64,000 nt of DNA from an uncultured Acidimicrobiia bacterium (GCA_963752385.1 CAVVYL010000060.1:9133-73132); one strand, 5' to 3'. Shown: positions 2,316-55,363, numbered from the stretch's first letter. A program made the numbers and translations. Notes: generated by a model not told the origin, from the sequence alone.

Positions 2316-2323
2316 CTACCATC

Positions 2324-4438: not shown

Positions 4439-4716
4439 ATCGGTTCTCCCTTAGCCTTGTCATCCGCAAAGTGAAACAAGGAACTACCCTGGACTTTCGA
4501 GATTGCTTCCCTGCGATTCCGCGCCCCAGGGAAGTTGCCCCAACTGGCAGATAAGAGTATCTGCGCACGCCGGCACGCTCGCCGACTTAGAAAGGTTCGG
4601 AGGCAAGTTCCTGGTGACGTACACATGGCCGGTTCGTCATGTGTACGAGACAGAACGCAGACATCGCCAGTACAACGCGATGTCTGCGCGACCAATGATC
4701 ACCTGACAGAGTAATA

Positions 4717-7700: not shown

Positions 7701-8266
7701 GCTCCTGAAGCCGAGTCTTCCTGCGCGCCCCAGGGAACAAACACTGACTGGCTAACCCCCGGCAAGGTTCGGAGCAAGCTCAACGGGTCGCGACCCTTGG
7801 CAATCATCAATTCGAGCTGGGTAGCGGTGAGCACGCCCGAGTGCTCGGCACTCTCCGTGCTAACCAATTCGCCAGTCGAGGTGACGGAGACGGTTTGAGT
7901 GACTTCCCCCAGCTCCATTGAAATCGAACCGAGGCCCAGGCGCTGGTTGGAGGTCAGACCCAACCCCTTTTGCTCATGTCGCTTGAAGCCGGCTTTCTCG
8001 ACAATCACGGTGTAGATCCCTGGCTGGACGGAATCAAAGACAAAGACTCCAGAGTCGTTGGTGACCCCCGAGCGGGCTACCTCGGTGGCTTCACTTTTTA
8101 GCGTCACGGTGGCGCCAGGAACAATGGCCCCGGAAGTATCGATCACAGTTCCAGTTACGGCACCAGTGATCGTCTGGGCCAAGGCACTTCCCGAGACCAG
8201 CGAAACAAGTAGTATCCCCAACAGCCCGAGGAAGACACCGATTTCTCTCTTTTTCCAGGCCTCCAT
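4717..8266 (-). pseudogene. TonB-dependent receptor with carboxypeptidase-regulatory-like N-terminal domain; frameshift near the 3' end
   Basis: ORF 5156..8266 (1036 aa) has a signal peptide, a CarbopepD_reg-like N-terminus (…TGAVTGTVIDTSGAIVPGATVTL…), plug and barrel. It stops at …WQLSGITTFR*. The barrel C-terminus, ending …RYIQFALRFFF, continues in another frame as ORF 4717..5211. The frame switch is at about 5155-5165. A strong AGGAGGG ribosome-binding site sits before the ATG at 8266. Confidence 0.7.
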
Positions 8267-8595
8267 CAGATCATCCCTCCTTAGAGTTTGCTAGCAGGCT
8301 ATCAGACAGCTTGGCAAGCGGTACGTCCGATTGGAATAATGTGAATACACACGACACAAACTACTGGTTTTCTTGATGTTGACCATGGTAGGACAGGGTC
8401 TTCTTGCATGTCAAGTAAATTTGGTTGAAATCTGTCTGACAACCAGATTAGAATAGGCCTCCGTCTCGCTGGATCGCCCGGAGGCTCCTTCAGAAAACAT
8501 CGTCCCAATGTGACTGTCTCGTGGCCGCTCTTCATTGAGCGGCAACTGACAAGCTGGCGGAGCGCTCCGCTTTGTCTCAATCGAATCCAAGGCCG

Positions 8596-9663
8596 ATGAA
8601 CCAGCTCTTGCGCAATCAAACTCATGGAGCCGTCGGCTGCATCGTGGCTACTGCTCCTGGAAAGGTGATCCTTTTCGGTGAACACGCCATCAATCGCGGA
8701 CAGCCGGCATTGGCGGCCAGTGTCGGATTATGGGCGCGCTGCCGTATCTGCCTTCGAAGCGAGCCAGGGAATGTGTTCCTCAGCGGAACTAACCAGCAGG
8801 CAGTCTCTCAGAAATCGATTCTCGACCTGACGCGCCAGGTTGACCTTGCGCGCAGCCAAGGCAACTATGAGTCCATTCGCCAACTGGCTGCTGAAGACTA
8901 TTTCGCCCCCGCCAAGTACATTCTGGGGTCAGCGCTGGGGGAGCAGTTGCCGGACGGATTCTCGGTGGAGTGGGAAAGCGAGATTCCCGCTTCCTCCGGG
9001 CTAGGGTCTGGCGGAGCAGCGTTTGCGGCCCTTGTCACGGCGCTGAACGGGCTCCTGGTGAAGCCTGCAAGCTTCGAAGAACTCGCCGCCTGGGCCTACC
9101 GCGGTGACGTGGTTGCCCATGGAGGCGTGGCATCGGCCCTCGATACGCAAACGTCGCTCGTGGGCGGTATCATTCGGTTCGCAGGCCAAGGACTAGCGCA
9201 GGCAGTCCCCTGCGCCGAGGGTTTCTCGCTGGTGATTGGGAATACTGGTGTGGCGGCGTCCACCCGTGAAATCAACACGCGGGTACGCCACTGGCTGGAA
9301 GAGAAGCCGGCCAGTCGCCTGGCTTTCTTCGAAGCAATGGGGGCTTTGTCACGAGCTGCCTTGCCGCTCCTGAAAGCAGGCGATTGGAACGAGCTGGGTA
9401 GGCTGTTCAATTTGAACCAACTGGCGCTTGAGAAGATCGGCGTTTCCAGCCCTGAGATTGACCAGCTGATCGAAGCTGCCCGGGAGGCAGGTGCCTTGGG
9501 GGCAAAACTCTCGGGCTCCGGCGGCGGGGGCATCGTCATTGCGTTGGTCACTTCGGAGACACAGCAGCGAGTTGCCCGCGCCATCGTGGAAGCAGGCGGG
9601 ACGGCGCTGCTTCCCGAGATCGGGGAGCGTGGTGCCAACGTAATCGATCGGAGACAAATCTAG
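8596..9663 (+). CDS. GHMP kinase, mevalonate-kinase-like
   Basis: N-terminal APGKVILFGEHA motif, GLGSGGAAFAA phosphate-binding motif and C-terminal KLSGSGGGG motif. The ORF track starts at TTG 8572; the first in-frame ATG was taken as 8596 by codon-offset arithmetic, not a direct base count. Confidence 0.55.
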   Translation: MNQLLRNQTHGAVGCIVATAPGKVILFGEHAINRGQPALAASVGLWARCRICLRSEPGNVFLSGTNQQAVSQKSILDLTRQVDLARSQGNYESIRQLAAEDYFAPAKYILGSALGEQLPDGFSVEWESEIPASSGLGSGGAAFAALVTALNGLLVKPASFEELAAWAYRGDVVAHGGVASALDTQTSLVGGIIRFAGQGLAQAVPCAEGFSLVIGNTGVAASTREINTRVRHWLEEKPASRLAFFEAMGALSRAALPLLKAGDWNELGRLFNLNQLALEKIGVSSPEIDQLIEAAREAGALGAKLSGSGGGGIVIALVTSETQQRVARAIVEAGGTALLPEIGERGANVIDRRQI

Positions 9664-9717
9664 GGCGTCTCCAAGACTCGCCACGTGGCAGACCGTCGCG
9701 AGTGGAAGGGATTCTTC

Positions 9718-10392
9718 ATGAACTTCAAAATCATCGACCTGACCCACAAGCTTCTGCCGGGTGAAGAACAATACCCTGTCGAGGTCAAGCAACGAGGCAA
9801 GCCGCGCGAGACGCCAACCGGCGACATCATGCATGACGTTTACATGTGGTCGCATTCCGGAACTCATGTCGAGGTATCGCTTCACTTCTATGCAGGAGGC
9901 AAAGACACGTCAGATTTTCCACCGGAGACCTTCGTAGGATCAGCCATTCGTCTAGACTTCCGGCACAAGCAGACGAACGAGCCGATCACGCTGGCGGAGA
10001 TTCAGGCCGCCGGCGACGTTCGGGAAGGAGACATCGTTGTCCTCTGGGAGGGGCGAGACCATCTCTATCGCACCAAGGAATCCCACTCCCGCCCCTATCT
10101 CACCGAAGAGGCGGCGCGCTGGCTGGCACTCGAGAAGAAGATCAAGTTGCTGGGAACGGACTCTTCTGGATTTGAGGTGCGTGGCGTCAGCACGCATCCC
10201 AACCACCACCTGTTTTTCAAGGCGGGTGTTGACATCCCAGTTGTGGAATGCCTCTGCCGCCTGGATAAGATTCCCAGCCAGCGATTTTTCTTCGTTGGGT
10301 TGCCTATTCCCGCGAAAGGGCTAGATGCATCGCCGATCCGGGCCATTGCGCTGGACATCGAAGGATGTTGGCCATCGTTGCGTTTCGAATAG
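9718..10392 (+). CDS. cyclase-family protein (kynurenine-formamidase-like metal hydrolase)
   Basis: HSGTHVE (HxGTHxD-like) motif, about 224 aa. The ATG at 9718 lies inside the GTG-started ORF 9685..10392. Confidence 0.55.
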   Translation: MNFKIIDLTHKLLPGEEQYPVEVKQRGKPRETPTGDIMHDVYMWSHSGTHVEVSLHFYAGGKDTSDFPPETFVGSAIRLDFRHKQTNEPITLAEIQAAGDVREGDIVVLWEGRDHLYRTKESHSRPYLTEEAARWLALEKKIKLLGTDSSGFEVRGVSTHPNHHLFFKAGVDIPVVECLCRLDKIPSQRFFFVGLPIPAKGLDASPIRAIALDIEGCWPSLRFE

Positions 10393-10438
10393 CCGTTCGC
10401 ATTGCGGTCGTCGCTTCAACTTGGATTTGCGGGGCTCT

Positions 10439-12154
10439 ATGGTTCGAATCGGGTCGGCATTGTTCAACGCAGATCACACCCGCCTTGGAGACGAGTTGCT
10501 CCGGGCAGAGGCTGCTGGGATTGATTTTTTTCACTTTGATGTCTTTGACGGGTACTTTGTGCCCGACCAGGCGTTTCCGGCCCGAACAATCAAATGGCTG
10601 CGGCGGCTGACGAAGCTGCCGTTTGAGGTGCACCTGGCCGCCAACGATCCGGTTCGCTTCCTGCCCGCGTTGGCAGACGCTGGTGTGGACCTGGTATTTC
10701 TTCCAGCTGAGAGCGTCGCGCTGCTCTACGAAACCATCTTTACCGTCCGCGAACAGGGAATGAGGGTGGGGTTGTGTCTGGCTCTCGGCACTCCGCTGGC
10801 GCTGCTGGATTCCACGTTGCCGATGATTGACTCGGTGCTGCTGCTGGGGCGTGTCACGGGCGAGGGCAAGCGCGGCCGTGACTTCAATCGACTTGTGATT
10901 GAGCGTGTGCGCCAGGTGCGCCAGCGCAGCGATGTCGCGGGAGGCTTGATCGACGTCCAAGCCGCCGGAGGCCTCGAAATAGCAAATTGCGCCGAGGTCG
11001 TTCAGGCGGGGGCCACTTCTCTTCCCCTTGGCGCTGCTTTGCACCGGGAGGCTGACATGGCCCTCTTCGTGTCGCGACTTCGCCAGTGCATCGGGAAAGG
11101 ACTCGAGGACCTCGGGTCGCAGATCGTGGATCGAAGTGCCTCTCGCGATCTCCAAGCTGCAATCCTAGCGCCTGCCAATGCCGCCCGCGGGGCGGAAGCG
11201 CAGACCTTTAACGTCCTGGTGGCTTCGCGCTCCTTTGGCAAGAACTGCCCAGAGGTTCTGGAAAGGATGAAGGCTGCGGGATGTGCCTTCATGCCGAACG
11301 ACTATGATCTTGCGCCCAGTGAAAAAGATCTGCTCGCGCTCATTCCAGAAGCCGACGTCTTGATTTCAGGGACGGAGCCCGTGACCGCCCGCGTGATTGC
11401 TGCCGCACGACGCTTGAAAGTCATCTCGAGGCACGGCGTCGGATTCGAAAATATCGATCTGGCAGCGGCAAGGGAGCGCGGAATTCGCGTTGCGATTGCA
11501 GGTGGAGTCATTGCCGATTCGGTAGCTGACATGACCCTGGCGCTGCTGCTCGCCCTGGCTCGCCAGATTCCTCAGGGCAATGCGTCTGTGAAGCGGGGTC
11601 AATGGCAGCGCTTTGTCGGACCTGAGCTCCGCGGCAAGACGCTCGGCTTGGTGGGACTGGGGCAAATTGGGCGATCCGTGTGTGTTCGAGCCAAGGGGTT
11701 CGGCATGCGGCTGGTTGCCTATGACTTGTGTCCCGATCGAGCTTTCGCAGCTTCGTGGGGGGTGGAGTATCGCGCTCTCGATGAGTTGCTCGGCACGGCA
11801 GACTTCGTCTCACTCCATTTGCCGGTCACCGATGAAACCCGACACCTGATCAACTGTGAGAGGCTGAATCGTATGAAGCGGGGCAGCTTTCTAATCAACA
11901 CCGCGCGGGGCGAGTTGGTCGACGAGGCGGCCCTCTATGAAGTTCTCAGCAGCGGCCACCTGGCCGGAGCCGCTGCCGACGTGTTCAGCACCGAGCCCCC
12001 CGGTGAAAACCGGCTGCTTCAACTCGAGAATTTCGTGGCGATGCCTCACAGCGCCAGCCAGACTCCGGAGGGTTTGCGTCGGATGGGAGAGATAACGGCC
12101 GAGAACGCCCTGCGGGTCCTCCGGGGCCAAGAACCACTGTTTTTCGTCGCCTAG
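10439..12154 (+). CDS. fusion protein: ribulose-phosphate-3-epimerase-like (RPE/AlsE family) N-domain plus D-isomer-specific 2-hydroxyacid dehydrogenase (PGDH-like) C-domain
   Basis: N-half …[20 protein letters not shown]… is RPE-family. C-half …[12 protein letters not shown]…[14 protein letters not shown]…[11 protein letters not shown]…AAADVF… shows the 2-Hacid_dh NAD-binding and catalytic motifs. Both halves lie in one uninterrupted ORF starting at the ATG at 10439. Confidence 0.6.
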
Positions 12155-12158
12155 GGGC

Positions 12159-13652
12159 ATGATGACTCCAAAGATATCCCGGTTTCCGTCGGCTCCAGTG
12201 CGTTTCCGCCAGCGGCGGCTGCACTGCGTCCGCTCTGTTCTGGTTGGGTTGGCGATCCTGGTCGCGGCACTTCCTTGCTTAGCGCTGCCTCGTCTTAAGG
12301 TTAGCGGGAACCGGCGGTTCCTCGTCGCGGAGAATGGGGAGCCCTTCTTCTATCTGGGTGATACGGCCTGGGAGCTGTTCCATCGGCTCAATCGCGAAGA
12401 AGCGGAACGCTACCTGAAGGACCGCGCAAAAAAAGGGTTCACGGTCATCCAGGCGGTGGCGTTGGCGGAGCTGGATGGGCTGAATGATCCGAATCCTTAC
12501 GGTCACCGTCCTCTGGTGAACAATGATCCGACTCAGCCGGATGTCAGGGAAGGAAGGGACAACGACTACTGGGATCATGTGGACTTCATCGTCAGCAAGG
12601 GAGAATCTCTTGGACTCTACATTGGTTTTCTGCCGACCTGGGGTGACAAATGGAACAGACGGCAGGGAGCCGGTCCGGAAATCTTCAACCCTCAAAACGC
12701 AGCTGTGTATGGCACATGGCTAGGGCAGCGTTATCGGAGCTCTGCGAACATCATTTGGATTCTGGGCGGCGACCGGCCAGTGGAAAGCGACACCCATCGA
12801 GAAGTAATTCGCGCCATGGCGCAGGGCTTGCGCAAAGGGCATGGCGGTGCACACCTGGCGACGCTGCATCCGCCGGGAGGCGAGGGTTCCTCGCGCTGGT
12901 TCCACGAAGACGAGTGGCTGGATTTCAACATGCGCCAGAACGGTCATGTCACGGAGTTCAACCCGCGCTACGAAGCGACCCGAGCCGATTACGAACGCGT
13001 GCCTGTCAAGCCGGTGCTGGATGGGGAACCGATTTACGAAGACCACCCGATATCGTTCAAGGCCCAAGAGCTGGGCCATTCTGTGGCAGCCGACGTCCGG
13101 CGGCCGCTCTATTGGGACCTGTTCAGCGGCGCGTTCGGGCACACCTATGGCCATCACTCGGTTTGGCAAATGTGGCAGCCGGGCCGCAAGCCTGTCAACA
13201 GCCCGCTGATGCCGTGGTTTGAAGCGCTCGATCAGCTCGGCGCCAGCCAGATGCAGTACGGTCGCAGGCTCATCGAGTCGCGGCCCTTCCTGACACGAAT
13301 TCCGGACGACTCCGTGATTGTTCCTACGGATCCAGCCTCTTCCGTGCCTGGAGCAGGGCTGAAGCGCTTTGCCGCCACCCGCGATGCCGAGGGCAGCTTC
13401 GCTTTGGTTTATGCTCCAACCGGAAGGCCCTTTAAGGTGCGCATGGACAAGATCCGCGGCGCGCTCGTGAAGGCGTGGTGGTACAACCCGCGCGACGGCG
13501 AATCCACGGTGATCGGAGAATTCTCCAGCGCCGGGCAGCGAGAGTTCGTTCCCCCGAGCTTGGGAGAGAACATGGACTGGGTGCTCGTTTTAGACGATGC
13601 TGCCCGGGGTTTCCCTGCGCCGGGAAAAGGCAAAGCCAAGAAGACGCCGTAG
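12159..13652 (+). CDS. glycoside hydrolase family 140-like (DUF4038) with C-terminal collagen-binding-like domain
   Basis: …[43 protein letters not shown]… is the characteristic DUF4038/GH140 N-terminus. It has a signal-like N-terminus and is 497 aa. Confidence 0.55.
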
Positions 13653-13774
13653 TCCACTAGGTGGCGACGAAGTTCACAATTCGGTCAAGTTTGTAGTCCC
13701 GCCTTCAGCCGGCCCTGGTCATCGCCGCCTGAAGGCGAAGGAGCCCTTGCTCCGTGAACCAGGAGAGGAATGAT

Positions 13775-14791
13775 ATGCAGGTTGCCGTGATTCAAGCGCC
13801 CCGTCAGATGCAACTGGAATCCTGGACAATACCCCAGCCCGGGCAGGGCGAGGTTTTGGTTTCAGTGCGAGCCGTCGGGGTCTGTGCTGGGGACCTGTAC
13901 ATTTATCAAGGGAAAAATCCTTATGCCAGCTATCCCGCCGTCGGAGGGCATGAGATCGCCGGCGTGATCGCAAGGGTTGGGGCCGGTGTCGCGGGTTTCG
14001 AGCCTGCGGAGCGTGTTGTCGTCGAACCGTTCATAGGTTGCGGGACCTGCTATCCGTGCCGGGTGGGCAAGTCCAATTGCTGCGCAAGGCTTGAGATCAT
14101 CGGTGTCCACCGGCCGGGAGGGTTCGCTGAATTCCTGACCGTACCCGCGCACAATCTTCATCGGATTCCCGACGGGCTTTCTTTCTCCATGGCCAGTTTT
14201 GCCGAGCCTGTGGCCATCGGTGTCCAGGCCTGCCGTCGAGGACAAGTGGCGAAGGGTGAATACGTGCTCATCCTGGGGTGTGGGCCAATTGGCCTGGCTC
14301 TCGTCGAAGTGGCAAGACAACGAGGCGCCCGGGTTGTTGCCACTGACATCCGGCCTTCTCGGCTCGAGATCGCCAAGCAGCTCGGAGCAGAGACGCTTGT
14401 GGCAGACGACCACTTGTTGTCCAGGGTCCTTGATCAGACCAACGGAGAGGGAGCCCCGGTGGTGATCGAGGCGACGGGAGACAGCAAAGCCATCGAGCTG
14501 ACGGTAGAGCTGGTTGCCGCCGGAGGGAGGATCGTGATTGTCGGGCTCATCAAAAGAGGCATCGGCGTGACTTTCCAGGGTCTGGATTTCACGCGCAAAG
14601 AGATGACCATTGTGGGATCCCGAGCGTCGGTGAGCTGTTTTCCTGAATCGCTGGAGCTTCTGGCGAGTGGGGCAGTCCAGTATCCGAAGGTGGCGACCGA
14701 GTTTACTCTTTCGGAGGCGCCCCGGGTGCTGGCTCAGATGGCCCAAGATCCAGCAGCGGTCCACAAGAGTCTGTTGGTCGTGGAGACTTGA
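13775..14791 (+). CDS. zinc-dependent alcohol/polyol dehydrogenase (MDR family)
   Basis: GHEIAG…, structural-Zn Cys cluster CGTCYPCRVGKSNCC and GCGPIGL Rossmann motif. The ATG at 13775 is preceded by AGGAGAGG. Confidence 0.75.
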   Translation: MQVAVIQAPRQMQLESWTIPQPGQGEVLVSVRAVGVCAGDLYIYQGKNPYASYPAVGGHEIAGVIARVGAGVAGFEPAERVVVEPFIGCGTCYPCRVGKSNCCARLEIIGVHRPGGFAEFLTVPAHNLHRIPDGLSFSMASFAEPVAIGVQACRRGQVAKGEYVLILGCGPIGLALVEVARQRGARVVATDIRPSRLEIAKQLGAETLVADDHLLSRVLDQTNGEGAPVVIEATGDSKAIELTVELVAAGGRIVIVGLIKRGIGVTFQGLDFTRKEMTIVGSRASVSCFPESLELLASGAVQYPKVATEFTLSEAPRVLAQMAQDPAAVHKSLLVVET

Positions 14792-14886
14792 ATGTGGGGG
14801 GAGCCGGCCGTCGTCTGATTGATCTGAAGGTCCAGATCGACGCCGGTGTTCTTTCGCAGTTTCCTATAGGGCTGAACAGGTGAACT

Positions 14887-15636
14887 ATGTTGAAGGCGGT
14901 TTCACGAGATCTAACTTTGGTGGACCAAGCTCTGAACCAGCTCGAGGGCTTAATCCTGGACGGAAGTTATGCACCTGGCAATCGTCTTCCTTCCGAAAAA
15001 GAGATGTCTTTGAAGCTCGGGGTCAGTCGTTCGGTGGTTCGAGAGGCCATCCATAGTCTGATCGCGAAAGGGCTGGTTGAGACGCGCACGGGGTCGGGGA
15101 TTTATGTTCGCGACCTGGGTTCACACCTCGTTACGGAGCCGATCAATCTGTTGCTTCGGTCACGCTGGTTCAACACGGACGAGATTCTGGAAGTCCGGGA
15201 GGTTCTCGAAATCAAAATTGCAGGCTTGGCGGCAGAGCGCGCCCAGGCCCGCGACCTCGAAGACTTGCAGGCGACCATTGATGCCCTCGGCAATCCAAAA
15301 CTGGCCCCGGCGGAGTACGCCCAAATCGACGTCGCGTTTCACAATCGCCTGGCGGCAGCGGCGGGCAATCCGTTATTTACGGTACTCGCGAACTCAATTA
15401 ACGACGTCATGATCAATATCCGGTTGCGAGCATTCAGGGTTGACGGCCCCTTGGTCGTGGAGCGCTCAGCCTTCTATCACGGGCACATCCTCGAGAAGGT
15501 ACGCGCACATGACGTCGAAGGTGCCCGCCGTGCCATGGAAGAGCATCTGGCCGAGGCTCGGGACACGTTACGTCGAGCGGATGCCACTTTTGTCAGAACC
15601 GCACGGCAGGTTGAACTGGAAAGGCCCAGCAATTGA
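14887..15636 (+). CDS. GntR-family transcriptional regulator (FadR/FCD subfamily)
   Basis: N-terminal wHTH …LPSEKEMSLKLGVSRSVVREAIHSLIAKGLVETRTGSGIYV… plus an all-helical FCD-like C-terminus. Confidence 0.75.
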   Translation: MLKAVSRDLTLVDQALNQLEGLILDGSYAPGNRLPSEKEMSLKLGVSRSVVREAIHSLIAKGLVETRTGSGIYVRDLGSHLVTEPINLLLRSRWFNTDEILEVREVLEIKIAGLAAERAQARDLEDLQATIDALGNPKLAPAEYAQIDVAFHNRLAAAAGNPLFTVLANSINDVMINIRLRAFRVDGPLVVERSAFYHGHILEKVRAHDVEGARRAMEEHLAEARDTLRRADATFVRTARQVELERPSN

Positions 15637-15677
15637 GCGAGGGTGCCATGTAGCGAGCAACCTCACTGCCGAGGGAA

Positions 15678-17297
15678 ATGGTATTGAAAGCGCCAAAGGA
15701 CGCCGGTCCGGGCTTTTCAGCCAAGAAAGGAATTGGGGGTATGTTTGATTTGAATATCCACACGGCTCGCCTGATGGCCGCGACGACAGTTCTCCAGCCT
15801 CGAATAACCAAGCCTTCCGTTGGGGCAACAGTTCTTGCCTTGTTCCTCTATTTCAGTCTCGGGATCGGCCAACTGGTTGCCGCCGAACCATTGAAGTTGC
15901 ATCCTGAGAATCCGCACTACTTTCTCTTTCGAGGAAAGCCGACCGTACTGATTACTTCCGCAGAACACTACGGAGCTGTGCTCAACCTGGATTTCGATTA
16001 CATCCGGTATTTGGACGAACTTCAGGCGAAGGGCTTGAACCTGACCAGGATCTGGCCCGGGGGCCCATACCTGGAGGTTCCCGGTACCTTTGACATCGCC
16101 AAGAACACACTGGCCCCTTTGGCGAACCGTTTCAGTTGCATCTGGCAGCGGAGTTCCTCTCCTGGCTACAAGCGCGGAGGAAACAAGTTCGACCTCACTT
16201 CCTGGAACCAAGCCCATCTCGCGCGGCTAAAGGACTTTGTGGCCCAAGCCGGCAAGCGCGGAGTGGTTGTCGAGTTAAGTCTGTTCTGTCCCTTCTACAC
16301 CGAGGATATGTGGAATGTGAGCCCCTGGAAGGCAAGCAACAACGTCAACGGAGTCGGAAACCTGGCTCGCACAGAGACGTTGACGTTGAAGAATGGTGGC
16401 CTTCTGGCTATTCAAGAGGCCATGGTGCGCAAGATTGTTTCTGAGCTTAAAGACTTTGACAACCTCTACTACGAGATCTGCAATGAGCCCTATGTCGGTG
16501 GTGTCACACTGGATTGGCAACATCACATCGCCGAGACCATTGTGGAGGCAGAATCTGCCTTTGCCCAAAAACACTTGATCGCCCAGAACATTGCGAATGG
16601 TTCGACGCAAATCGAGAATCCCCATTCAGCCGTTTCCATCTTCAACTTTCACTACTCACGGCCGCCGGATAGTGTTCGGATGAACTATGGGCTTAACCGA
16701 GTGATTGGCCTTAATGAGACAGGCTTCGACGGTCCTGCCGATGCGACCTATCGCATCCAGGGATGGGACTTCATCCTGGCAGGCGGAGCGCTCTACAACA
16801 ATTTGGACTACTCCTTCACGGTGGAACATCCCGACGGGACATTTGTGCCAGATCCAAAAACGCCCGGCGGAGGGAGCCCGGCTTTGCGTAGTCAGCTGAA
16901 GGTTCTCAAAGATTTAATTCACAGCGTCGATTTCATCAGGATGGCTCCTCGCGACTCTGTCGTCAAAGGAGTATTCCCAGCGGGTGCCACGGCTCGGGCC
17001 CTGGCCGATCAAGGCAAGGCCTATGCCATTTATGTTCATCATGGACAGCCCGGGTACGATCACACGAGCACGGGCACGCGGTCGAGACCGCCGTACAAAG
17101 TGGCTCCAGGTCCGCAACAGGTGGAGCTCGTATTGGACGTGCCGAGCGGTTTGTACCAAGCCGAATGGATCAGCACAAAGTCGGGCCATATTGAGAAGAC
17201 CGAGAAATTCAAGAGTACGAGCACACCGCACACCGTGCGCTCTCCCTCCTACTCGGAAGACATCGCGCTTCGCATCAAGCGTCTCGAGGCTGAATGA
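15678..17297 (+). CDS. glycoside hydrolase family 5-like (cellulase superfamily) protein
   Basis: TIM-barrel GH motifs including …LYYEICNEPY… (NEP acid/base motif) and an N-terminal hydrophobic segment. Confidence 0.5.
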   Translation: MVLKAPKDAGPGFSAKKGIGGMFDLNIHTARLMAATTVLQPRITKPSVGATVLALFLYFSLGIGQLVAAEPLKLHPENPHYFLFRGKPTVLITSAEHYGAVLNLDFDYIRYLDELQAKGLNLTRIWPGGPYLEVPGTFDIAKNTLAPLANRFSCIWQRSSSPGYKRGGNKFDLTSWNQAHLARLKDFVAQAGKRGVVVELSLFCPFYTEDMWNVSPWKASNNVNGVGNLARTETLTLKNGGLLAIQEAMVRKIVSELKDFDNLYYEICNEPYVGGVTLDWQHHIAETIVEAESAFAQKHLIAQNIANGSTQIENPHSAVSIFNFHYSRPPDSVRMNYGLNRVIGLNETGFDGPADATYRIQGWDFILAGGALYNNLDYSFTVEHPDGTFVPDPKTPGGGSPALRSQLKVLKDLIHSVDFIRMAPRDSVVKGVFPAGATARALADQGKAYAIYVHHGQPGYDHTSTGTRSRPPYKVAPGPQQVELVLDVPSGLYQAEWISTKSGHIEKTEKFKSTSTPHTVRSPSYSEDIALRIKRLEAE

Positions 17298-17371
17298 AGC
17301 TGTTGAGTTCGACACCGAAGCGGCAAGGACGACGATGCAGCCGTTGAAGCGGCCGAAGCCAAGGAGCAACA

Positions 17372-18340
17372 ATGAAAATCGCTGTAATTGGCGCCGGAGC
17401 AATGGGGAGCGTCATGGGTGGACTGCTAGCCAAAGCGGGAAACCAGGTGACGCTGATTGAGGTCTCGCAGCAAGTTGTCGAAGCCATCAATAGCAGAGGG
17501 TTGCGCCTTGAAGCCAAGTCCGGCGCCACGGAGACCATCCATGTGCCCGCGACCGCTGAGTCCAGCCGCGTGGGCATCGTTGACCTGGTTCTCGTGTTCG
17601 TGAAGTGCTACCACACAGAAGCGGCAGTACACGCGGCATCGCCTCTGATTGGTCCCGACACGATGGTGTTGTCTCTGCAGAATGGTTGGGGTAACGGGCC
17701 AAAGATCAGCGCCATCGTGGGCGAGCAGCGATTGTTGCTGGGAGTGTGTTACCACAGCGCGACTGTTGCAGGACCAGGACACGTCCGGCACGTAGGGCAG
17801 GGTATGACGTTTATCGGAGAGTTGAACGGCAAAATCACTTCCCGGCTGAAACGTATCACCGAGACGTTTGAGAAGGCCGGGATTGAGGTGACCGCCACGC
17901 CTGCTGTCCTCAAGGAGATTTGGTCCAAGCTGGCGCTGAACGCTTGCACGCTGCCGACCTCAGCCCTGCTCCGTTTGTTCTCCCCTCAACTGATTCAACA
18001 CCAGAGCATGCTCGAACTGATGCGTGCCCTGCTGGGAGAGGTTGTCGCGGTTGCCCAGGCCCAACAGATCCCCCTCGACTTCGATGAGCGCTGGGATGTG
18101 ATCACCGGACTGTTGAAGGGCCTGGCGCCAAGTGCCAAGTCTTCTATGTGTCAAGATGTGGAGAAGGGCCGGCAGACCGAGATCGAAGTGATTAACGGCG
18201 CGATCGTGGAGTCGGGTCGGCGGTTGGGCATCGGCACCCCTTACAACGACGTGATGGTGTGGCTGGTGAAAGCATTGGAAGAAACCTTTCAGCAGCCTGG
18301 GTCGCCAGATCTTTCGACGGTGGAGTCCCTGCGCGCTTAA
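17372..18340 (+). CDS. 2-dehydropantoate 2-reductase family (PanE/ApbA) oxidoreductase
   Basis: MKIAVIGAGAMGS Rossmann start and the KLALNA / C-terminal ApbA_C pattern. AAGGAG ribosome-binding site before the ATG at 17372. Confidence 0.7.
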   Translation: MKIAVIGAGAMGSVMGGLLAKAGNQVTLIEVSQQVVEAINSRGLRLEAKSGATETIHVPATAESSRVGIVDLVLVFVKCYHTEAAVHAASPLIGPDTMVLSLQNGWGNGPKISAIVGEQRLLLGVCYHSATVAGPGHVRHVGQGMTFIGELNGKITSRLKRITETFEKAGIEVTATPAVLKEIWSKLALNACTLPTSALLRLFSPQLIQHQSMLELMRALLGEVVAVAQAQQIPLDFDERWDVITGLLKGLAPSAKSSMCQDVEKGRQTEIEVINGAIVESGRRLGIGTPYNDVMVWLVKALEETFQQPGSPDLSTVESLRA

Positions 18341-18417
18341 CGCGTGCGGTATTGACTGCCCGGAGTCCATTGCGTCCTGGTCAGATTCTCACTGTAGTCA
18401 GATGGAGCAGCTATTCA

Positions 18418-19194
18418 ATGACTCGAATTCGCTTCTTTGGTGTGGCTGCCTACGAACTGACCACCGGCAGGGGCCAGCGAATTCTGGTTGACCCGTTTCT
18501 GGATGAGAACCCGGGCAGTCCCGTGAAATCTCACCAGCTCGAGAAGGTCGATCTGATCGTTGTCTCTCATGCCGCGGCCGATCACCTGGGAGACACCGAA
18601 GCCATTGCTCGGCGCACTGGCGCACCGGTTGTGTGTGGAGGCGAGGTCAAAGCCTACCTAACGGCGCGCGGTGTTCCTGCCACCCAGATCCGTGCAACCA
18701 CTTGGGGAATCGCCGTCGAGGTGGCTGGAATCCGCGTGCAGCCGCTGGAATGCCATCACTGGTCGCAGATTCAGATGCCCGACGGCACGTTTGCTTCAGG
18801 AGTGCCCATGGCATTTGTCATTTACACTGACCCTGGGGTCCGCTTTTACCACTACGGTGATACGGCGATCTTCAGCGATATGAAACTGCAGAGAGAGCTC
18901 TATCAGCCCACTATCGGATGTATTGGAATAGCCAACCCTCTTGAGATTCTGGATCGTAACCCCATGCCGGGGCAGATGCTAACCGCCGAGATGAGTCCGC
19001 GCGAAGGGGCGCTGGCTGCAGAATGGCTTGGGCTCGAGACCGTCCTGCCCTGTCACTACATCAATCCGGACTGCGATCAAGTTCGCGAGTTCAACCTTCT
19101 GTTGGAACAAGCCGGGCGGGACGGACGAAAAGTCCCGCGGTCGTTGGTGCTGAGGCCGGGAGAAGTCTTTGCCGCCCCTCCAGGCGTGATTTGA
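18418..19194 (+). CDS. MBL-fold metallo-hydrolase (UlaG/UPF0173-like)
   Basis: …RILVDPFLDENPG…DLIVVSHAAADHLGDT… (HxHxDH-like motif), about 258 aa. The ATG was placed at 18418 inside the longer ORF 18259..19194 by approximate count. Confidence 0.55.
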   Translation: MTRIRFFGVAAYELTTGRGQRILVDPFLDENPGSPVKSHQLEKVDLIVVSHAAADHLGDTEAIARRTGAPVVCGGEVKAYLTARGVPATQIRATTWGIAVEVAGIRVQPLECHHWSQIQMPDGTFASGVPMAFVIYTDPGVRFYHYGDTAIFSDMKLQRELYQPTIGCIGIANPLEILDRNPMPGQMLTAEMSPREGALAAEWLGLETVLPCHYINPDCDQVREFNLLLEQAGRDGRKVPRSLVLRPGEVFAAPPGVI

Positions 19195-19235
19195 CCGGCA
19201 AGTTGCTCTCATGCGAGGTTGAGAAGGGATCATTG

Positions 19236-19370
19236 ATGCAAGCCGCCGTTATTCAGGCTCCGCTGCGGATGGGTATGGAGTCGCGCCCGCCGCCGCTCCT
19301 GGGTCCCGGTGAAGTGTTGGTTGGGGTCAAGTCGGTGGGTGTCTGTGCGGGCCCGATAGTCTGGTCGCAG
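19236..19370 (+). pseudogene. N-terminal remnant (about 45 aa) of a Zn-dependent alcohol dehydrogenase paralog
   Basis: MQAAVIQAPLRMGMESRPPPLLGPGEVLVGVKSVGVCAG parallels the N-terminus of the ADH at 13775 (MQVAVIQAPRQMQLESWTIPQPGQGEVLVSVRAVGVCAG), then diverges to nonsense. Confidence 0.4.
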
Positions 19371-19437
19371 CTGGCACTCGAGAGCGCCGTCTTTTGCTGG
19401 ACCCGGCCACTCCCACATTCGTCAACAGAGGTGATTC

Positions 19438-20367
19438 ATGCGGCTCTACAGCTTTGAACGTCATGGGGAACAGCGCATCGGTGCCGAACACGACAACCAG
19501 TTAGTGGATCTTAGAGCGGCGGCCGAGGCTTTGGAGCGCGAGCAACGCTCGGCGGGCGGCGCCCAGGCATTCTCTGCAGGCATGCTGGGCCTGATCCGGG
19601 CCGGTGACACCGGCATGAACGCGGCCAGGCGGGTCTTTCAATACGCGCTGGGACGTGACAGGTCCAATCCGCCACTAATGATCCCGCTGGGCGAGGTGCG
19701 CCTGTTGGCTCCGATTCCCCGGCCAGGCAAAATCCTTTGCTCCGGCATCAATTACCTGAGTCATAAGGACGAGAACCCCAACGCCGTTCTGCCTGAATCT
19801 CCTTTCTTCTTCTCGAAGCTGCCTTCCGCGGTGATCGGTCCAGGAGCACCGATTGTCCATCCCAGGGCCACGCGACAGATGGATTACGAGGTGGAGCTCG
19901 CCGTGGTCATTGGCAAGCCCATGCATCACACTCCTGAGGAGGCAGTGATGGCAAGCATTGCCGGCTATACGATCTTGCACGACGTTTCCGCTCGCGATGT
20001 CCAATTCAAAGACAACCAGATCACTCTGGGAAAGAATTTTGACACCTTCGCTCCCATGGGACCGTGCCTCGTCACGACCGATGAGCCAATCGAACCGGGC
20101 AACGTGCGTCTTCGTACGCTGCTCAATGGCCGCGTGATGCAGGACGGCTCCACACGCGACTGGCTATTCCCACTCCCCAGGCTGCTTTCGCTCCTCTCAC
20201 AGGTGATGACTCTGGAGCCGGGTGACGTTGTGAGCACGGGGACTCCTGCCGGAGTCGGTGTCTTTCGCCAGCCGCCGGTCTTCCTCAAGCCAGGTGACCA
20301 GGTTGTTCTGGAGATCGAGAAGATCGGACGGTTGGAGAATCCGGTCGTTGGGCCGGCACAGACTTAA
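19438..20367 (+). CDS. fumarylacetoacetate hydrolase (FAH) family protein
   Basis: …ILCSGINYLSHKDE…DYEVELAVVIGK…GTPAGVG… are FAH-family motifs. RBS-like AGAGGTGA before the ATG. Confidence 0.75.
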   Translation: MRLYSFERHGEQRIGAEHDNQLVDLRAAAEALEREQRSAGGAQAFSAGMLGLIRAGDTGMNAARRVFQYALGRDRSNPPLMIPLGEVRLLAPIPRPGKILCSGINYLSHKDENPNAVLPESPFFFSKLPSAVIGPGAPIVHPRATRQMDYEVELAVVIGKPMHHTPEEAVMASIAGYTILHDVSARDVQFKDNQITLGKNFDTFAPMGPCLVTTDEPIEPGNVRLRTLLNGRVMQDGSTRDWLFPLPRLLSLLSQVMTLEPGDVVSTGTPAGVGVFRQPPVFLKPGDQVVLEIEKIGRLENPVVGPAQT

Positions 20368-20609
20368 GGCTAGCGCCGGGTGCCTTGCATGCGAGCTACG
20401 GGAAGGCAAGATGATACACGGCCCAGAATTTTTCTTGCCGGTTTGTCGCGTCTGGGCTTATCAGTCGTATCAGCCATGGATCTTGATCCGATTTGGGATG
20501 ATCATTTTGAAGGAAGAATTCTTAGGAAACGCCTATAGTTGACACGCAATGTGGTAATGCAACAATAAGCTGTTCACTTTGTGCCTTGTGGCTCAATGGC
20601 GGACCACGC

Positions 20610-23114
20610 ATGAACCGTTACTTCCGATTTCTCACTTGTCTTGCCTTAACGTTTGCTTTTGCGTCGCCGGTTCCAAACTTGTCTGCTGCCACCGGCGATC
20701 TGGCTCAGAGAGCGGTCTCCGTTTTGCAGGAGCAGTGTCTGCCGTGCCATGGCGAATCGACTGCCATGTCGGGCTTGAAGCTCACGTCGCGCCAGCTTGT
20801 GTTGAAGGGCGGCACCCGCGGACCGGCTCTCGTTCCCGGCAAAGCGGAGGCAAGCCTCTTGTTTCAGGCGGTTAGCCATACAGAAAAGCTTGCCATGCCA
20901 CCTGGGAAGAAGCTGCGAGCTGAAGATGTCGCTTTGTTGCGTGAGTGGATTGAGGCTGGGGCCGCGTGGCCCCAGGGCGCTGCTACCCTCGAAAACATGA
21001 CTGCCTCCACGTGGTGGGCCTTCCGCAAGCCGGTGCGCCCCGAAGTGCTGCGATCAGGCCATGAGTGGGTGCGGAATCCCATCGACGAGTTTGTGCTCAA
21101 TAAGTTGGTTGAAAACGGGCTGAAGCCTGCTTCTGAAGCCAGCCGTCCCACCCTGATCCGTAGGCTTTATTACGATCTCACCGGTCTGCCGCCCAGCGCC
21201 GAAGAGGTGAGGGTCTTCGTTGAAGACCAGTCCGCCGACGCCTATGCGAAGCAAGTGGACCGACTGCTGGCCTCATCCCATTACGGAGAAAAGTGGGGGC
21301 GCCACTGGCTTGACTTGGTTCGGTACTCCGACACGGCCGGTTTCGAGCTGGACTCCTACATTGCTGACGCGTGGCGCTACCGCGACTGGGTGATCGAGTC
21401 ATTCAACAGCGACAAGCCTTATGACCGCTTTATCCGCGAGCAGATTGCGGGCGACGAGTTCTTTGCGGAGGACCCGGTTGCCCAAACCGGCACCGGCTTT
21501 TTCTGCGTCGGCCCCAATCGCGACCTCTTCCCTGACCAGTCAGACATCAACCGCGAAGAAACACTCACTGACTTTGTAGATACGACGGCCTCCGTCTTTC
21601 TGGCTTTGACAGCCGGCTGCGCGCGCTGTCACGATCATAAGTTCGATCCGATTTCGCAGCGCGACTACTTCCGCGTCCAAGCGATCTTCGAGCCCTTTGC
21701 AAAGACCCGGATACCCCTCGATCGCCTCTCTTCCCTCGCTTTTGACACTGCCGAGAACGTGCGTGAAATCAAGCTTCGCGAGATCGGTGAGCAGATTCGA
21801 GCGGCCCAAGGGCGCTGCCGGACGCAGCTTTTTGAGGAAAAGCTCAGAGTTCTGCCTGCTGAAGCCCAAGAAGCCCTACGCCTGGATGATTCGAAGCGCA
21901 CGGCCCGGCAGCGTGCACTCGTTACTGAATACGGTCCGAAGGCGCGGGTCAGCGATGATGAGGTCCGGGCCTGTCTGACGAGCGAGGAATCGGCTCGGCT
22001 CCATCTCATCGAGAAGGGGTTGGTCTCCATGTTTGCCGATTACCGGCCGAAGTCCTTTGCCTGCGGTATTACGGATATTGGCTACGTCTCACCCAAAACC
22101 TATGTTCCGGGCAGAGGCTCGCGCCCGCGCGAGGAGGTTCAGCCGGGCTTCTTTTCGATTCTCGGCGGCGGCGAAGTGCCACCTCCTGCCGAGAAACGGG
22201 AAGGCACGGGACCGATTCCGCTGAACCCAACGACTGGCCGCCGCCGAGCCCTTGCCGATTGGATTGCCACGCCCGACAATCCGCTCACCGCTCGGGTCAT
22301 GGTGAACCGCATCTGGCAATACCACTTCGGTCGCGGCATTGTGGCGACGCCATCGGATTTCGGCACGCGCGGCCGCCTCCCCTCCCACCCTGAGCTGCTC
22401 GATTGGCTGGCGACGGAGTTCGTGGCGCGGGGCTGGTCGGTGAAGCAGGTGCACCGGCTCATCTTGAACTCAGCCGCCTACCAGCAGGATTCCGTTGGTG
22501 CGCCTGAGGCTGCTCAGAAAGACCCTGAAAACCTGCTGCTGTCCCGTTTCTCGCGCCGCCGCCTCAATGCCGATGAGATCCGCGACTCGGTGTTGGCGAC
22601 CGCGGGCCGGCTCAACCGGAAGGCGGGCGGCCGCCCCGTCGTGACCCCGCTTTCCAAAGAGGAAATGCAAAGTCTCACCCAGCGCCCGGCTGATGCCTGG
22701 GTTGTGACCGCCGATACTTCCGAATACAGCCGGCGCAGCATCTACCTGCTTCAGAAACGCACTTTCCGGCTTCCCATGATGGAAGTGTTCGATGCGCCGG
22801 AACCGATGCTGACCTGTCCGCGCCGTGAGTCGTCCACTACGGCTCCCCAGTCGCTTACGCTGCTGAACGGCGCCTTTGTCATGGAGCAATCACGCGCGCT
22901 GTCAGAGAAACTGGCTGCGGAGCACGCCTCCGACGAGAAACTCATCCGAGCCGCTTGGTTGCAGGTTCTGGCGCGCGAGCCTGATTCCGAGGAGATGAAG
23001 CTTGCGAATCGCTTCCTGGCCCGTCAAACTGAGAATACCGGCGGCCGTCTGGGGGCTGCCACTGAAATGATTCGTGGTCTATTTAACTTGAACGAGGTTC
23101 TCTATGTGGACTAA
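20610..23114 (+). CDS. PSD1-family protein (planctomycete-type cytochrome-c domain plus DUF1549 plus DUF1553)
   Basis: Signal peptide, CxxCH (CLPCHG), DUF1549 motifs (…RRLYYDLTGLPP…) and DUF1553 C-terminus. Its stop overlaps the start of the downstream DUF1501 gene by 4 nt. Confidence 0.75.
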   Translation: MNRYFRFLTCLALTFAFASPVPNLSAATGDLAQRAVSVLQEQCLPCHGESTAMSGLKLTSRQLVLKGGTRGPALVPGKAEASLLFQAVSHTEKLAMPPGKKLRAEDVALLREWIEAGAAWPQGAATLENMTASTWWAFRKPVRPEVLRSGHEWVRNPIDEFVLNKLVENGLKPASEASRPTLIRRLYYDLTGLPPSAEEVRVFVEDQSADAYAKQVDRLLASSHYGEKWGRHWLDLVRYSDTAGFELDSYIADAWRYRDWVIESFNSDKPYDRFIREQIAGDEFFAEDPVAQTGTGFFCVGPNRDLFPDQSDINREETLTDFVDTTASVFLALTAGCARCHDHKFDPISQRDYFRVQAIFEPFAKTRIPLDRLSSLAFDTAENVREIKLREIGEQIRAAQGRCRTQLFEEKLRVLPAEAQEALRLDDSKRTARQRALVTEYGPKARVSDDEVRACLTSEESARLHLIEKGLVSMFADYRPKSFACGITDIGYVSPKTYVPGRGSRPREEVQPGFFSILGGGEVPPPAEKREGTGPIPLNPTTGRRRALADWIATPDNPLTARVMVNRIWQYHFGRGIVATPSDFGTRGRLPSHPELLDWLATEFVARGWSVKQVHRLILNSAAYQQDSVGAPEAAQKDPENLLLSRFSRRRLNADEIRDSVLATAGRLNRKAGGRPVVTPLSKEEMQSLTQRPADAWVVTADTSEYSRRSIYLLQKRTFRLPMMEVFDAPEPMLTCPRRESSTTAPQSLTLLNGAFVMEQSRALSEKLAAEHASDEKLIRAAWLQVLAREPDSEEMKLANRFLARQTENTGGRLGAATEMIRGLFNLNEVLYVD

Positions 23115-26940: not shown

Positions 26941-27006
26941 ATCGAATCAAGTACAAGATTTCGAGGGGCACACCAGGGAGCTGCTAAAATTGCACGTCAG
27001 CGAAGA

Positions 27007-27057
27007 GCCGGCTCTCCTTTCCCCTCGCGGGAGCGAGGGGAGGCGAAGTTTTCAGCC
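27007..27057 (+). terminator. candidate intrinsic terminator downstream of the TPR gene
   Basis: GC-rich hairpin cccctcgc-ggga-gcgagggg with extended stem, followed by …gaagttttcag. Confidence 0.35.
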
Positions 27058-27084
27058 GTTGCGCAGCTTTCGGGCTGACCATGG

Positions 27085-28284: not shown

Positions 28285-28322
28285 GCCAGACACTCGCCGT
28301 CGAGCCAAAGGCGTCTGTTTGA

Positions 28323-30089: not shown

Positions 30090-30155
30090 TAGAGGCAGGG
30101 ACCCCGAGTTAGTTCCTGCCCATTTCGAGTGACTGTACCTGAAAGAGGAAAGGCT

Positions 30156-34177: not shown

Positions 34178-34377
34178 CAGCAACACTCACGCGGTTTTTG
34201 AGGCGGATCAAGATTGGCAGCTGCTGGAACGTTCAGGAAGATCGGTATGCCACCTTCCATCGGCAGCTCGCCTTAGTTTGAAGCAGTGTCTGACCGAGCA
34301 AAGTCTCCAAACCAGTTGCCAGTTCTACTTAGATTTGCATGTCGCGGTCCTCAGACCGCTCCTTTATGAGGTTATCT

Positions 34378-55175: not shown

Positions 55176-55363
55176 TCCGGTCTCCAATCAATGCTGGAAG
55201 ACTTGACGACTCCGGTTCAGCCTGCCCGCATTTTTAGGCAGGGCGGCTGCAACAGGCGGGCTAGCCCGTCCTGTTAAGTGGGCCGCAAGCAAGTCGCAGC
55301 AGTCGCAAGGGCCTTAAGTCCAGGTTCAACAGAGTGTGATCGAGTGGGATACGACGGCAAGAC

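Follow-up and report, generated by a model that had tools for sequence, protein, structure and literature searches.

A mevalonate-kinase-like gene module accompanying apiose-linked genes in an uncultured Acidimicrobiia bacterium: a probable branch of D-apionate catabolism

Known apiose routes and the locus under study

Apiose is universal in plant pectin, in rhamnogalacturonan II (RG-II) and apiogalacturonan, and occurs in more than a thousand plant glycosides. The catabolic enzymes for D-apiose and D-apionate were reportedly described by Carter et al. in 2018, and the bacterial apiose routes named in the searched literature all go back to that one study. Here, a gene cluster was analysed in a stretch of 64,000 nt from an uncultured Acidimicrobiia bacterium (GCA_963752385.1, CAVVYL010000060.1:9133-73132), hereafter the window, whose positions are used throughout. 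The cluster had been noticed at positions 8596-20367 by a first-pass annotation and includes a mevalonate-kinase-like GHMP kinase, a cyclase-family metal-dependent enzyme, a fusion of a ribulose-phosphate-epimerase-like (RPE-like) barrel with a D-2-hydroxyacid dehydrogenase (2HADH), and a GH140 apiosidase. The locus is probably an apioside/D-apiose utilisation system, the cytoplasmic part of which would be an undescribed branch of D-apionate catabolism. It is best filed as a known function, apiose/apionate catabolism, with a new, non-orthologous downstream module.

According to passages of PMC11747546, PMC12994016 and PMC6302742, the known oxidative route employs the dehydrogenase ApsD, the lactonase ApnL, the oxidoisomerase ApnO, the kinase OiaK, and either the decarboxylase OiaC or the transcarboxylase/hydrolase OiaX. 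The locus has the upstream logic in common with the Carter 2018 pathways, namely an ApnL homologue and, in related loci, an adjoining Gfo/Idh/MocA dehydrogenase, and likewise a kinase and a metal-dependent barrel for the later steps, together with similar regulators and transporters. However, the window presents a GHMP kinase, a cyclase-family protein and the RPE-like/2HADH fusion instead, without DUF1537 or RuBisCO-like proteins. Moreover, the Carter 2018 pathways are found in Proteobacteria, whereas the module appears in Chloroflexota, Armatimonadota and other phyla.

Domains were assigned to the open reading frames (ORFs) of the window with Pfam and NCBIfam (June 2026). Among the scanned ORFs, no match to OiaK/DUF1537 (SBD_N/NBD_C, NF042436) was found, and the DUF1537-like genes present in four related loci reached only 24.7 bits on the OiaK model. 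RuBisCO_large, the family of OiaC and OiaX, was found neither in the window nor in the Pfam-annotated related loci or the conserved neighbour clusters, and PdxA and transketolase were not found in the window with either library. In addition, no protein of the locus was named ApnO by NCBIfam, the presence of an ApnO model in that library being unconfirmed; the June 2026 release has models for ApnL and OiaK and no specific model for the kinase, the cyclase or the fusion. In the full-text literature to mid-2026, with subscription journals mostly outside, no link of apiose with a GHMP or mevalonate-type kinase was found.

Other described systems share parts of this organisation. The PdxB (4-phosphoerythronate), SerA (3-phosphoglycerate) and DUF1537/PdxA2 threonate/erythronate routes also combine a kinase with the NAD-dependent oxidation of a short hydroxy acid, and the dehydrogenase of the window is nearest to phosphoglycerate dehydrogenase (PGDH); their kinases, however, belong to a family other than that of the window. 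The tertiary C3 of apionate makes an oxidative decarboxylation of the PdxA2 type impossible, so that additional rearrangement steps are required. Finally, the RG-II locus of Bacteroides thetaiotaomicron (GH140 BT1012) has a GH140 apiosidase beside an outer-membrane receptor, as in the window. In contrast to that locus, the window glycosidase is located inside a monosaccharide-catabolic operon, and its receptor is of the CarboxypepD_reg/OMP_b-brl_4 type without a SusD partner.

The features of the locus are as follows (coordinates, strand, assignment):

2324-4438, minus: ApnL homologue of 704 aa with a Tat-type signal, lying outside the first-pass cluster
4717-8266, minus: TonB-dependent-type outer-membrane receptor (CarboxypepD_reg and OMP_b-brl_4 by Pfam), divergent from the kinase operon
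8267-8571, no strand: intergenic stretch that separates the divergently oriented receptor gene and kinase operon, a probable promoter/operator region
8572-9663, plus: mevalonate-kinase-like GHMP kinase, with an alternative ATG at 8596
9718-10392, plus: cyclase-family metal-dependent enzyme (PF04199)
10439-12154, plus: fusion of an RPE-like barrel and a PGDH-like D-2-hydroxyacid dehydrogenase (Pfam, NCBIfam and PDB comparison)
12159-13652, plus: GH140 apiosidase (PF13204) with an N-terminal signal/anchor
13754-14791, plus: Zn-dependent medium-chain dehydrogenase (Zn-ADH) of the polyol or polyol-phosphate type, start probably at 13775
14887-15636, plus: GntR/FCD regulator (Pfam, NCBIfam)
15678-17297, plus: exported protein with weak clan GH-A/GH5 similarity and an NEP motif, start uncertain
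17372-18340, plus: PanE/ApbA-family 2-oxoacid reductase, an accessory gene
18418-19194, plus: UPF0173-type metallo-beta-lactamase-fold (MBL) hydrolase, an accessory gene
19438-20367, plus: FAH-family hydrolase/decarboxylase, of doubtful pathway membership

All ten successive plus-strand ORFs from 8572/8596 to 20367 were present in the ORF list and in the Pfam and NCBIfam results, which bore out the ten genes and domains listed by the first-pass annotation. Its gene labels were confirmed apart from two that were imprecise: the Cellulase match of the exported GH5-like protein (15678-17297) scored 22.4 bits, under the gathering score of 23.5, with no NCBIfam match and no significant PDB relative, and the MBL protein is of the UPF0173/TM_1162 type, UlaG not being among its matches. 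The boundaries proposed at 8596-20367 do enclose the ten ORFs; the locus, however, reaches upstream to the ApnL homologue, and its bounds are about 2324-19194, perhaps to 20367. The starts of the cyclase (9718), the fusion (10439) and the MBL gene (18418) are probably these later ones rather than those of the longest ORFs, as judged from Met codons and from the gene calls of L047, a metagenome contig near-identical to the window. The gaps between genes measure 4-122 nt as far as the MBL gene, followed by 243 nt ahead of the FAH gene, and no convincing terminator was found inside the cluster.

Conservation of the module and features of its enzymes

Two independent apiose-linked families, ApnL and GH140, travel with the module, which links it to apiose. 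The sole NCBIfam match of the ORF at 2324-4438 was ApnL (NF049900), at full length and with 350 bits against an equivalog cutoff of 750, and there was no match in the Pfam copy used; the near-identical gene on L047 has the Pfam domains Apionate_lact_N/M/C on record. By tblastn, this ORF showed 53% identity over 660 aa to an Apionate_lact_N/M/C protein of a related locus (L001). The close relatives of the window homologue are called D-apionolactonase by JGI, and the ApnL-like family is very large in metagenomes, with that name on some of its members. Its N-terminus (window 4220-4438, minus strand) carries a twin-arginine signal (MNLTRRDALKVVVGGALAG..., read as MNLTRRDALK...), an extension also present in ApnL relatives of ~715 aa, most homologues being of ~650 aa and without it. 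Thus placed, lactone hydrolysis may be periplasmic in this lineage. The GH140 protein matched the Pfam family 'Apiosidase' (PF13204) with 385.9 bits, Collagen_bind_2 being present too, and aligned with PDB 8t9w, deposited as 'Apiosidase', with 500 bits over 441 residues, and with 3kzs/5msy at 267 bits.

To establish the conservation of the cluster, a scan with a kinase alignment, taking one genome per species, gave 42 loci, and 41 non-redundant related loci were considered. These were mostly from Chloroflexota, the rest being from Armatimonadota, Abditibacteria, Opitutales, Tepidisphaerales, Rubrobacter and Gaiellaceae, so that module carriers span at least six phyla (Chloroflexota, Armatimonadota, Abditibacteria, Verrucomicrobiota, Planctomycetota and Actinomycetota). 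The first three neighbourhoods (from Abditibacteriaceae, Herpetosiphonaceae and a JGI metagenome) presented a short-chain dehydrogenase (SDR), the kinase, the cyclase and the RPE/2HADH fusion in this order, with genes for an Apionate_lact protein, Gfo/Idh/MocA dehydrogenase, GntR/FCD regulator, Zn-ADH, GH140 or ABC transporter on their flanks. Overall, the order kinase, cyclase, RPE/2HADH, fused or split, was observed in about 35 of the 41 loci, usually with the SDR. With its core order repeated in about 40 independent loci, the arrangement lies far outside what chance would give. Families were counted among all the ORFs within 10 kb on either side of the kinase, in the 41 loci plus the window, by reference-based and de novo clustering. 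The following numbers of loci were obtained, the window being included for the families that it carries:

Kinase family: 38
SDR: 34
Cyclase: 30
2HADH (in most loci part of the RPE-like fusion): 30
Stand-alone RPE-like gene (the split version, adjacent to the 2HADH gene): 11
ApnL: 19
Gfo/Idh/MocA dehydrogenase: 18
GntR/FCD regulator: 17
Zn-ADH (orthologues 61-69% identical): 17
NAD-epimerase-like protein: 14
ABC permeases: 14
GH140: 13
DUF5060-Apiosidase type: 5
PanE (orthologues 51-62% identical in 8-9 related loci): 9
MBL (orthologues 60-65% identical): 4

As many contigs are truncated, separate counts were taken from well-sampled loci only. In 26 loci the kinase is followed by 3 kb or more of sequence; the cyclase was immediately next in 22 of these, and the 2HADH gene lay within 3 kb, again in 22. 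In 14 loci no less than 7 kb is available on either side of the kinase; 13 of these had the SDR and 12 had ApnL or GH140. ApnL directly adjoins the module in four loci (L001, L004, L031 and L033) and, by the gene maps, often belongs to one transcription unit with it (ApnL>SDR>KIN or ApnL>KIN). The Gfo/Idh/MocA gene, present in 18-20 related loci, had no ApsD-specific model match.

Six loci (L018, L023-L025, L028 and L029) form a subtype without the RPE-like part; upstream of their kinase lie, instead, genes for a TIM barrel of the xylose-isomerase type and a PGDH_C-type dehydrogenase. Most loci of this subtype have PanE, and subsets of them have a UPF0173 MBL protein, a second epimerase-like gene or a DUF1537-type kinase; the MBL orthologues lie directly 3' of the 2HADH gene in L023, L024 and L028. 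The window is a mixed form, with the fused RPE/2HADH protein plus PanE and MBL. In contrast to the genes that recur, FAH and GH5-like orthologues were each detected by tblastn in a single locus among 41-43 related loci. Hence the gene membership proposed by the first-pass annotation stood for the kinase/cyclase/fusion core, GH140, Zn-ADH and GntR; PanE and MBL are accessory and belong with a subtype, and the FAH and GH5-like genes, each with an orthologue in about 1 of 41 loci, are probably local additions. The undescribed apiose/apionate route linked to glycan degradation, which that annotation had suggested, gained support from the synteny of the module across phyla, beside ApnL homologues and GH140, and from the ApnL homologue of the window 4 kb upstream. 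Its aceric-acid alternative received no specific support.

One further locus, L048 (GCA_054773435.1, 10001-21280), has an ApnL homologue of the same clade as that of the window, directly adjoining a DUF5060-Apiosidase gene. It also contains a Fucose_iso_C-like isomerase, a split transketolase, a glycerol-kinase-like FGGY kinase, a Gfo/Idh/MocA dehydrogenase, a PGDH_C protein and a xylose-isomerase-like barrel. This family composition presumably resembles the isomerase/kinase/transketolase route of apiose plus oxidative entry steps.

The kinase scored 206.6 bits with the mevalonate kinase model TIGR00549, above its cutoff of 163, and 196.5 bits with the stricter model NF003036, below its cutoff of 403. 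Its residues K31, H38, S188 and D191 align with Lys9, His16, Ser135 and Asp138 of the Methanosarcina mazei enzyme, and these catalytic positions (Lys31, His38, Ser188 and Asp191) were invariant in 29 family members. In mevalonate kinase (MVK), Lys, Asp and Ser are catalytic and His contacts the C3 hydroxyl and methyl of mevalonate (PMC6283576). The window kinase has the same fold, motifs, catalytic Lys/Asp/Ser and C3-contacting His as MVK (EC 2.7.1.36), and the substrates proposed for it are likewise tertiary-carbinol hydroxy acids. It differs, however, in forming a separate clade, in having no neighbours of the mevalonate (MVA) pathway, in scoring below NF003036, and in its residues ~62-127, between motif I and motif II (from the N-terminal motif to the GHMP N domain), for which no alignment to the M. 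mazei enzyme was obtained. Among solved structures it comes closest to archaeal MVKs, with a score of only ~146 bits.

A search of 1.84 billion representatives with the kinase returned scores from 367 bits down to an MVK-like background of ~130-170 bits. In a neighbour-joining tree of 181 sequences, built without bootstrap, the 36 context-verified kinases and the 26 top representatives formed one clade of 62 tips, which left out the remaining 119 MVK-like sequences and likewise the MVK of Brevibacterium (L046). The latter, 30% identical to the window kinase, lies in an MVK-MDD-PMK operon and was the positive control for an MVA context. Conversely, neither PMK, MDD, HMG-CoA synthase or reductase, nor IDI was found within 10 kb on either side of the kinase in the 41 loci, nor in the 64-kb window. 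The first-pass view of an MVK-like kinase repurposed in the absence of other MVA genes is in line with these results; of the points on which that view had been said to fall, those examined turned out otherwise, as the kinase does not cluster with true MVK and the core genes are co-conserved. We propose that the kinase acts as a sugar-acid kinase, on apionate or 3-oxo-isoapionate. An MDD-like phosphorylation of the tertiary hydroxyl was also considered, and it was set aside because the protein fits MVK far better than MDD in NCBIfam.

There are thousands of relatives of the kinase at 50-72% identity, several of which are called mevalonate kinase in NCBI or JGI records. As an observation on naming, the clade members P0019, P0035, P0064 and P0119, together with many JGI entries, bear this label and pass TIGR00549. 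Since kinases of the clade pass that model, they are named mevalonate kinase and can yield false mevalonate-pathway calls in metagenome-assembled genomes (MAGs), among them those of Chloroflexota and Armatimonadota.

The cyclase-family protein matched PF04199 with 90.8 bits and the arylformamidase model TIGR03035 with 52.7 bits, below its cutoff of 223. It was the most conserved protein of the module, with 57-84% identity across phyla. At least 90% of 30 members have the metal-binding motif in the form WSHxGTHxE, where HxGTHxD is canonical, and the PNH and ECL ligands are conserved. The solved structures closest to it are those of metal-dependent hydrolases whose substrate is unknown, isatin hydrolase and kynurenine formamidase. 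A literature search on PF04199 yielded only a screen for carboxylesterases.

In the fusion, Ribul_P_3_epim and 2-Hacid_dh domains are joined in one protein of 571-609 aa. The RPE-like domain scored 127.9 bits with PF00834, above threshold, and 123.7 bits with TIGR01163, below the cutoff of 212.6, and aligned over its whole length with the RPE of Streptococcus pyogenes at 107 bits. The equivalents of His34, Asp36 and His67 of that enzyme are retained, whereas the position of Asp176 is Ala in the window and in the whole RPE-like family ('QAAGG' for 'VDGG'). Moreover, the positions of Met38, Met69 and the Met of 'IMT' in PDB 2fli are occupied by Phe, Ala and Leu, and the loop NPGFGGQ is replaced by TGEGxRGR; these substitutions were alike in the fused and split versions. 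In RPE, Asp36 and Asp176 (S. pyogenes numbering) form the acid/base pair on opposite faces of the enediolate, Asp176 being also a metal ligand; this mechanism is reportedly treated by Akana et al. (2006) and Liang et al. (2011). With Asp176 lost, a two-base 1,1-proton transfer is unavailable, and a one-base enediolate reaction, such as a decarboxylation or a retro-aldol/aldol shift, fits better; a substrate with a tertiary C3 is also suited by a reaction of this kind.

Compared with the RPE/ribulose-phosphate-binding barrels, including the KGPDC-type decarboxylases, the window domain shares the (beta/alpha)8 barrel, the metal ligands His-Asp-His and the phosphate loops rich in glycine. It departs from this superfamily in the change of Asp176 to Ala, the replaced Met residues, the altered NPGFGGQ loop and the fusion to a dehydrogenase, and one subtype of the module swaps the RPE-like domain for a xylose-isomerase-like TIM barrel. 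In the dehydrogenase domain, the catalytic Arg, Glu and His are visible in the sequence within NTARG, TEP and PHS(AS). It scored 279.6 bits with the PGDH model TIGR01327, below the cutoff of 454, and the nearest PDB chains were PGDHs (214 bits), with glyoxylate/hydroxypyruvate reductases close behind (~200 bits).

Proposed pathway and alternative readings

The individual steps of the pathway, which are inferred, are held with considerably less confidence than the general reading. By homology and context, the exported GH140 apiosidase and the TonB-type receptor would handle apiose-containing glycans, by apioside hydrolysis and by uptake across the outer membrane, respectively, the Tat-exported ApnL-type lactonase would open D-apionolactone to D-apionate, and the GntR/FCD regulator would control the genes of the locus. 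Downstream, the invariant trio or quartet of module proteins would replace ApnO, OiaK and OiaC/OiaX by unrelated proteins with an equivalent chemical logic. Being a 2-hydroxy acid whose C3 is a tertiary carbinol, D-apionate resembles mevalonate and pantoate, and 3-oxo-isoapionate has its primary alcohol at the same distance from the tertiary carbinol as mevalonate does. The MVK paralogue would phosphorylate a primary (terminal) hydroxyl, either on apionate or on its rearranged form, 3-oxo-isoapionate, and the PGDH-like 2HADH domain could oxidise the C2 hydroxyl of apionate or phospho-apionate. That the kinase acts first is mildly favoured, because phosphorylated substrates are used by the families to which the two fusion domains belong. 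The PanE substrate ketopantoate is a close analogue of 2-oxo-apionate.

Furthermore, the cyclase-family metalloenzyme and the one-aspartate RPE-like barrel, which would suit protonation of an enediolate from one side, might together carry out a hydroxymethyl shift, a decarboxylation or a cleavage leading to a C4 ketose (tetrulose) phosphate, and the Zn-ADH, SDR and epimerase-like oxidoreductases could channel the product into central metabolism. A decarboxylase of the xylose-isomerase family operates in one known apionate route. The exchange of the RPE-like barrel for a xylose-isomerase-like one, both being enediolate-stabilising folds, is compatible with a decarboxylase or isomerase role. A formaldehyde-releasing retro-aldol route was set aside, as no formaldehyde-detoxifying enzyme is conserved in the module. 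A more specific claim can be made, for which we see even chances: that this is a fifth, non-orthologous route for D-apionate, widespread in soil phyla with few cultured members and involving three activities new to their families. These would be a sugar-acid kinase of the MVK family, a metalloenzyme of the cyclase/formamidase family for skeleton rearrangement or C-C cleavage, and a one-aspartate RPE-like barrel that works as a decarboxylase or as a one-base enediolate enzyme, joined in one protein with its dehydrogenase partner.

Several observations weigh against this assignment to apiose and apionate. The ApnL homologue reached 350 bits where the equivalog cutoff is 750, and the lactone could be a relative of apionolactone; its Tat signal implies periplasmic hydrolysis of the lactone, yet no periplasmic apiose oxidase was identified. 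The kinase stands above the TIGR00549 cutoff for mevalonate kinase, and the tree that sets it apart was a neighbour-joining one without bootstrap support. Neither an SDR nor a Gfo/Idh/MocA gene was found in the 64-kb window, although both appear in most related loci, and no inner-membrane transporter was found in the window either. The roles given to the cyclase and RPE-like proteins come from chemical reasoning only, the substrate and the steps being deduced. In addition, only the Carter 2018 enzymes are named in the searchable literature to 2026, from which subscription journals are outside, and a description elsewhere is possible.

The same catabolic module could serve another substrate, that is, a branched or short-chain aldonate or lactone, or an RG-II component such as aceric acid, if the specificities of the ApnL-like and GH140-like proteins had diverged. 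This is unlikely, although it deserves attention, given the sub-equivalog ApnL score (350 vs. 750 bits), the large size of the GH140/DUF4038 family, of which only three distinct solved chains matched the window protein, the number of oxidoreductases (SDR, Zn-ADH, the epimerase-like Epi1, PanE and PGDH_C-like), which is higher than a simple apionate route requires, and the threonate-kinase-related DUF1537-type kinases that adjoin the module in four loci. However, two independent apiose-linked families stand beside the module in 12 of the 14 fully sampled loci, the GH140 protein is related to the solved 'Apiosidase' at 500 bits, far above family-level similarity, the close ApnL relatives bear the JGI label D-apionolactonase, and an ApnL of the same clade lies beside a DUF5060-Apiosidase gene in L048.

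A role of the module in biosynthesis or salvage, for instance of a phosphorylated branched C4/C5 compound or a cofactor precursor, with a loose link to the glycan genes, is improbable: the module shares operons with glycoside hydrolases, a lactonase, GntR/FCD regulators, and either sugar ABC transporters or a TonB-type receptor, and the patchy spread over phyla is typical of accessory catabolic operons, even though biosynthetic enzymes (MVK and PGDH/PdxB-like) are the nearest characterised relatives of its kinase and dehydrogenase. The idea that the kinase is a genuine isoprenoid MVK with unrelated neighbours was already strongly disfavoured and has the lowest probability, close to negligible. 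It draws on the TIGR00549 score (206.6 vs. 163 bits), on the name mevalonate kinase in NCBI and JGI, and on the intact catalytic residues. Against these stand the lack of MDD, PMK and HMG-CoA genes near the kinase in all 41 loci (0/41), opposite to the MVK-MDD-PMK operon of the Brevibacterium homologue, the gene order with the cyclase and RPE/2HADH fixed across phyla, the separate clade, the score below NF003036 (196 vs. 403 bits), and the residues ~62-127 that do not align with the M. mazei enzyme.

If the reading of the locus as an apiose system with a new apionate branch is true, apiose carbon would be used by abundant, little-cultured soil phyla (Chloroflexota, Armatimonadota, Abditibacteria and Verrucomicrobiota) as well as by the source organism, three enzyme families would have probable new reaction types, and the name 'mevalonate kinase' would be mistaken in many annotations of MAGs from Chloroflexota, Armatimonadota and related groups. 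The set of three or four genes is compact and directly testable on D-apionate.

Regulatory features and neighbouring genes

The 305-nt gap between the divergent receptor and kinase genes (8267-8571) contains, on both of its strands, three of the seven sigma-70-like matches of the region 2000-21000, and no regulatory RNA was found in the window with Rfam. Three palindromes were noticed, namely GCAGATA-N4-TATCTGC upstream of ApnL (4547-4564), ATCTG-N9-CAGAT upstream of the kinase (8430-8448) and GATCTG-N6-CAGATC upstream of the GntR gene (14821-14838), which have CAGAT/ATCTG arms in common and unlike spacers (4, 9 and 6 nt, respectively). These could be operator sites, and the GntR/FCD protein is a probable sugar-acid-responsive repressor of the locus.

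The main domain of the receptor is OMP_b-brl_4 (467 bits, Pfam). Its reading frame is broken near 5156-5211, where the ORFs 5156-8266 and 4717-5211 overlap in different frames, and the gene is in three pieces on L047. A DUF1501 gene is also split in the window (995-1807 and 1761-2315, plus strand), and it is intact on L047. This points to assembly or sequencing errors, not pseudogenes, for both the DUF1501 and the receptor genes. Pairs of a PSCyt/DUF1549/DUF1553 (PSD1) cytochrome-c-domain protein and a DUF1501 protein occur on both sides of the locus (4-2315 and 20586-24513). As a speculation, these pairs might be linked to a periplasmic oxidation step.

Further downstream, positions 25480-32051 encode two TPR proteins, an FG-GAP/ASPIC (UnbV) protein and a 640-aa protein with DUF5060 and Collagen_bind_2. 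The latter has the flanking domains seen in DUF5060-Apiosidase proteins, with no Apiosidase match in Pfam and no orthologue in the related loci. On the minus strand, TIR-domain, DinB, CHAT plus TPR-S and DUF7379 proteins are found together at 54411-60798, and the CHAT and DUF7379 genes have a G+C content of 0.65-0.67 at 56-60 kb compared with about 0.57 elsewhere; this stretch may be a defence or signalling island. Finally, an AMP-forming acyl-CoA synthetase of the propionyl-CoA-synthetase type (34339-36285, plus strand), of no use as a taxonomic marker, showed ~75-79% identity to proteins of several phyla (Anaerolineae, Binatia and Methylomirabilota).

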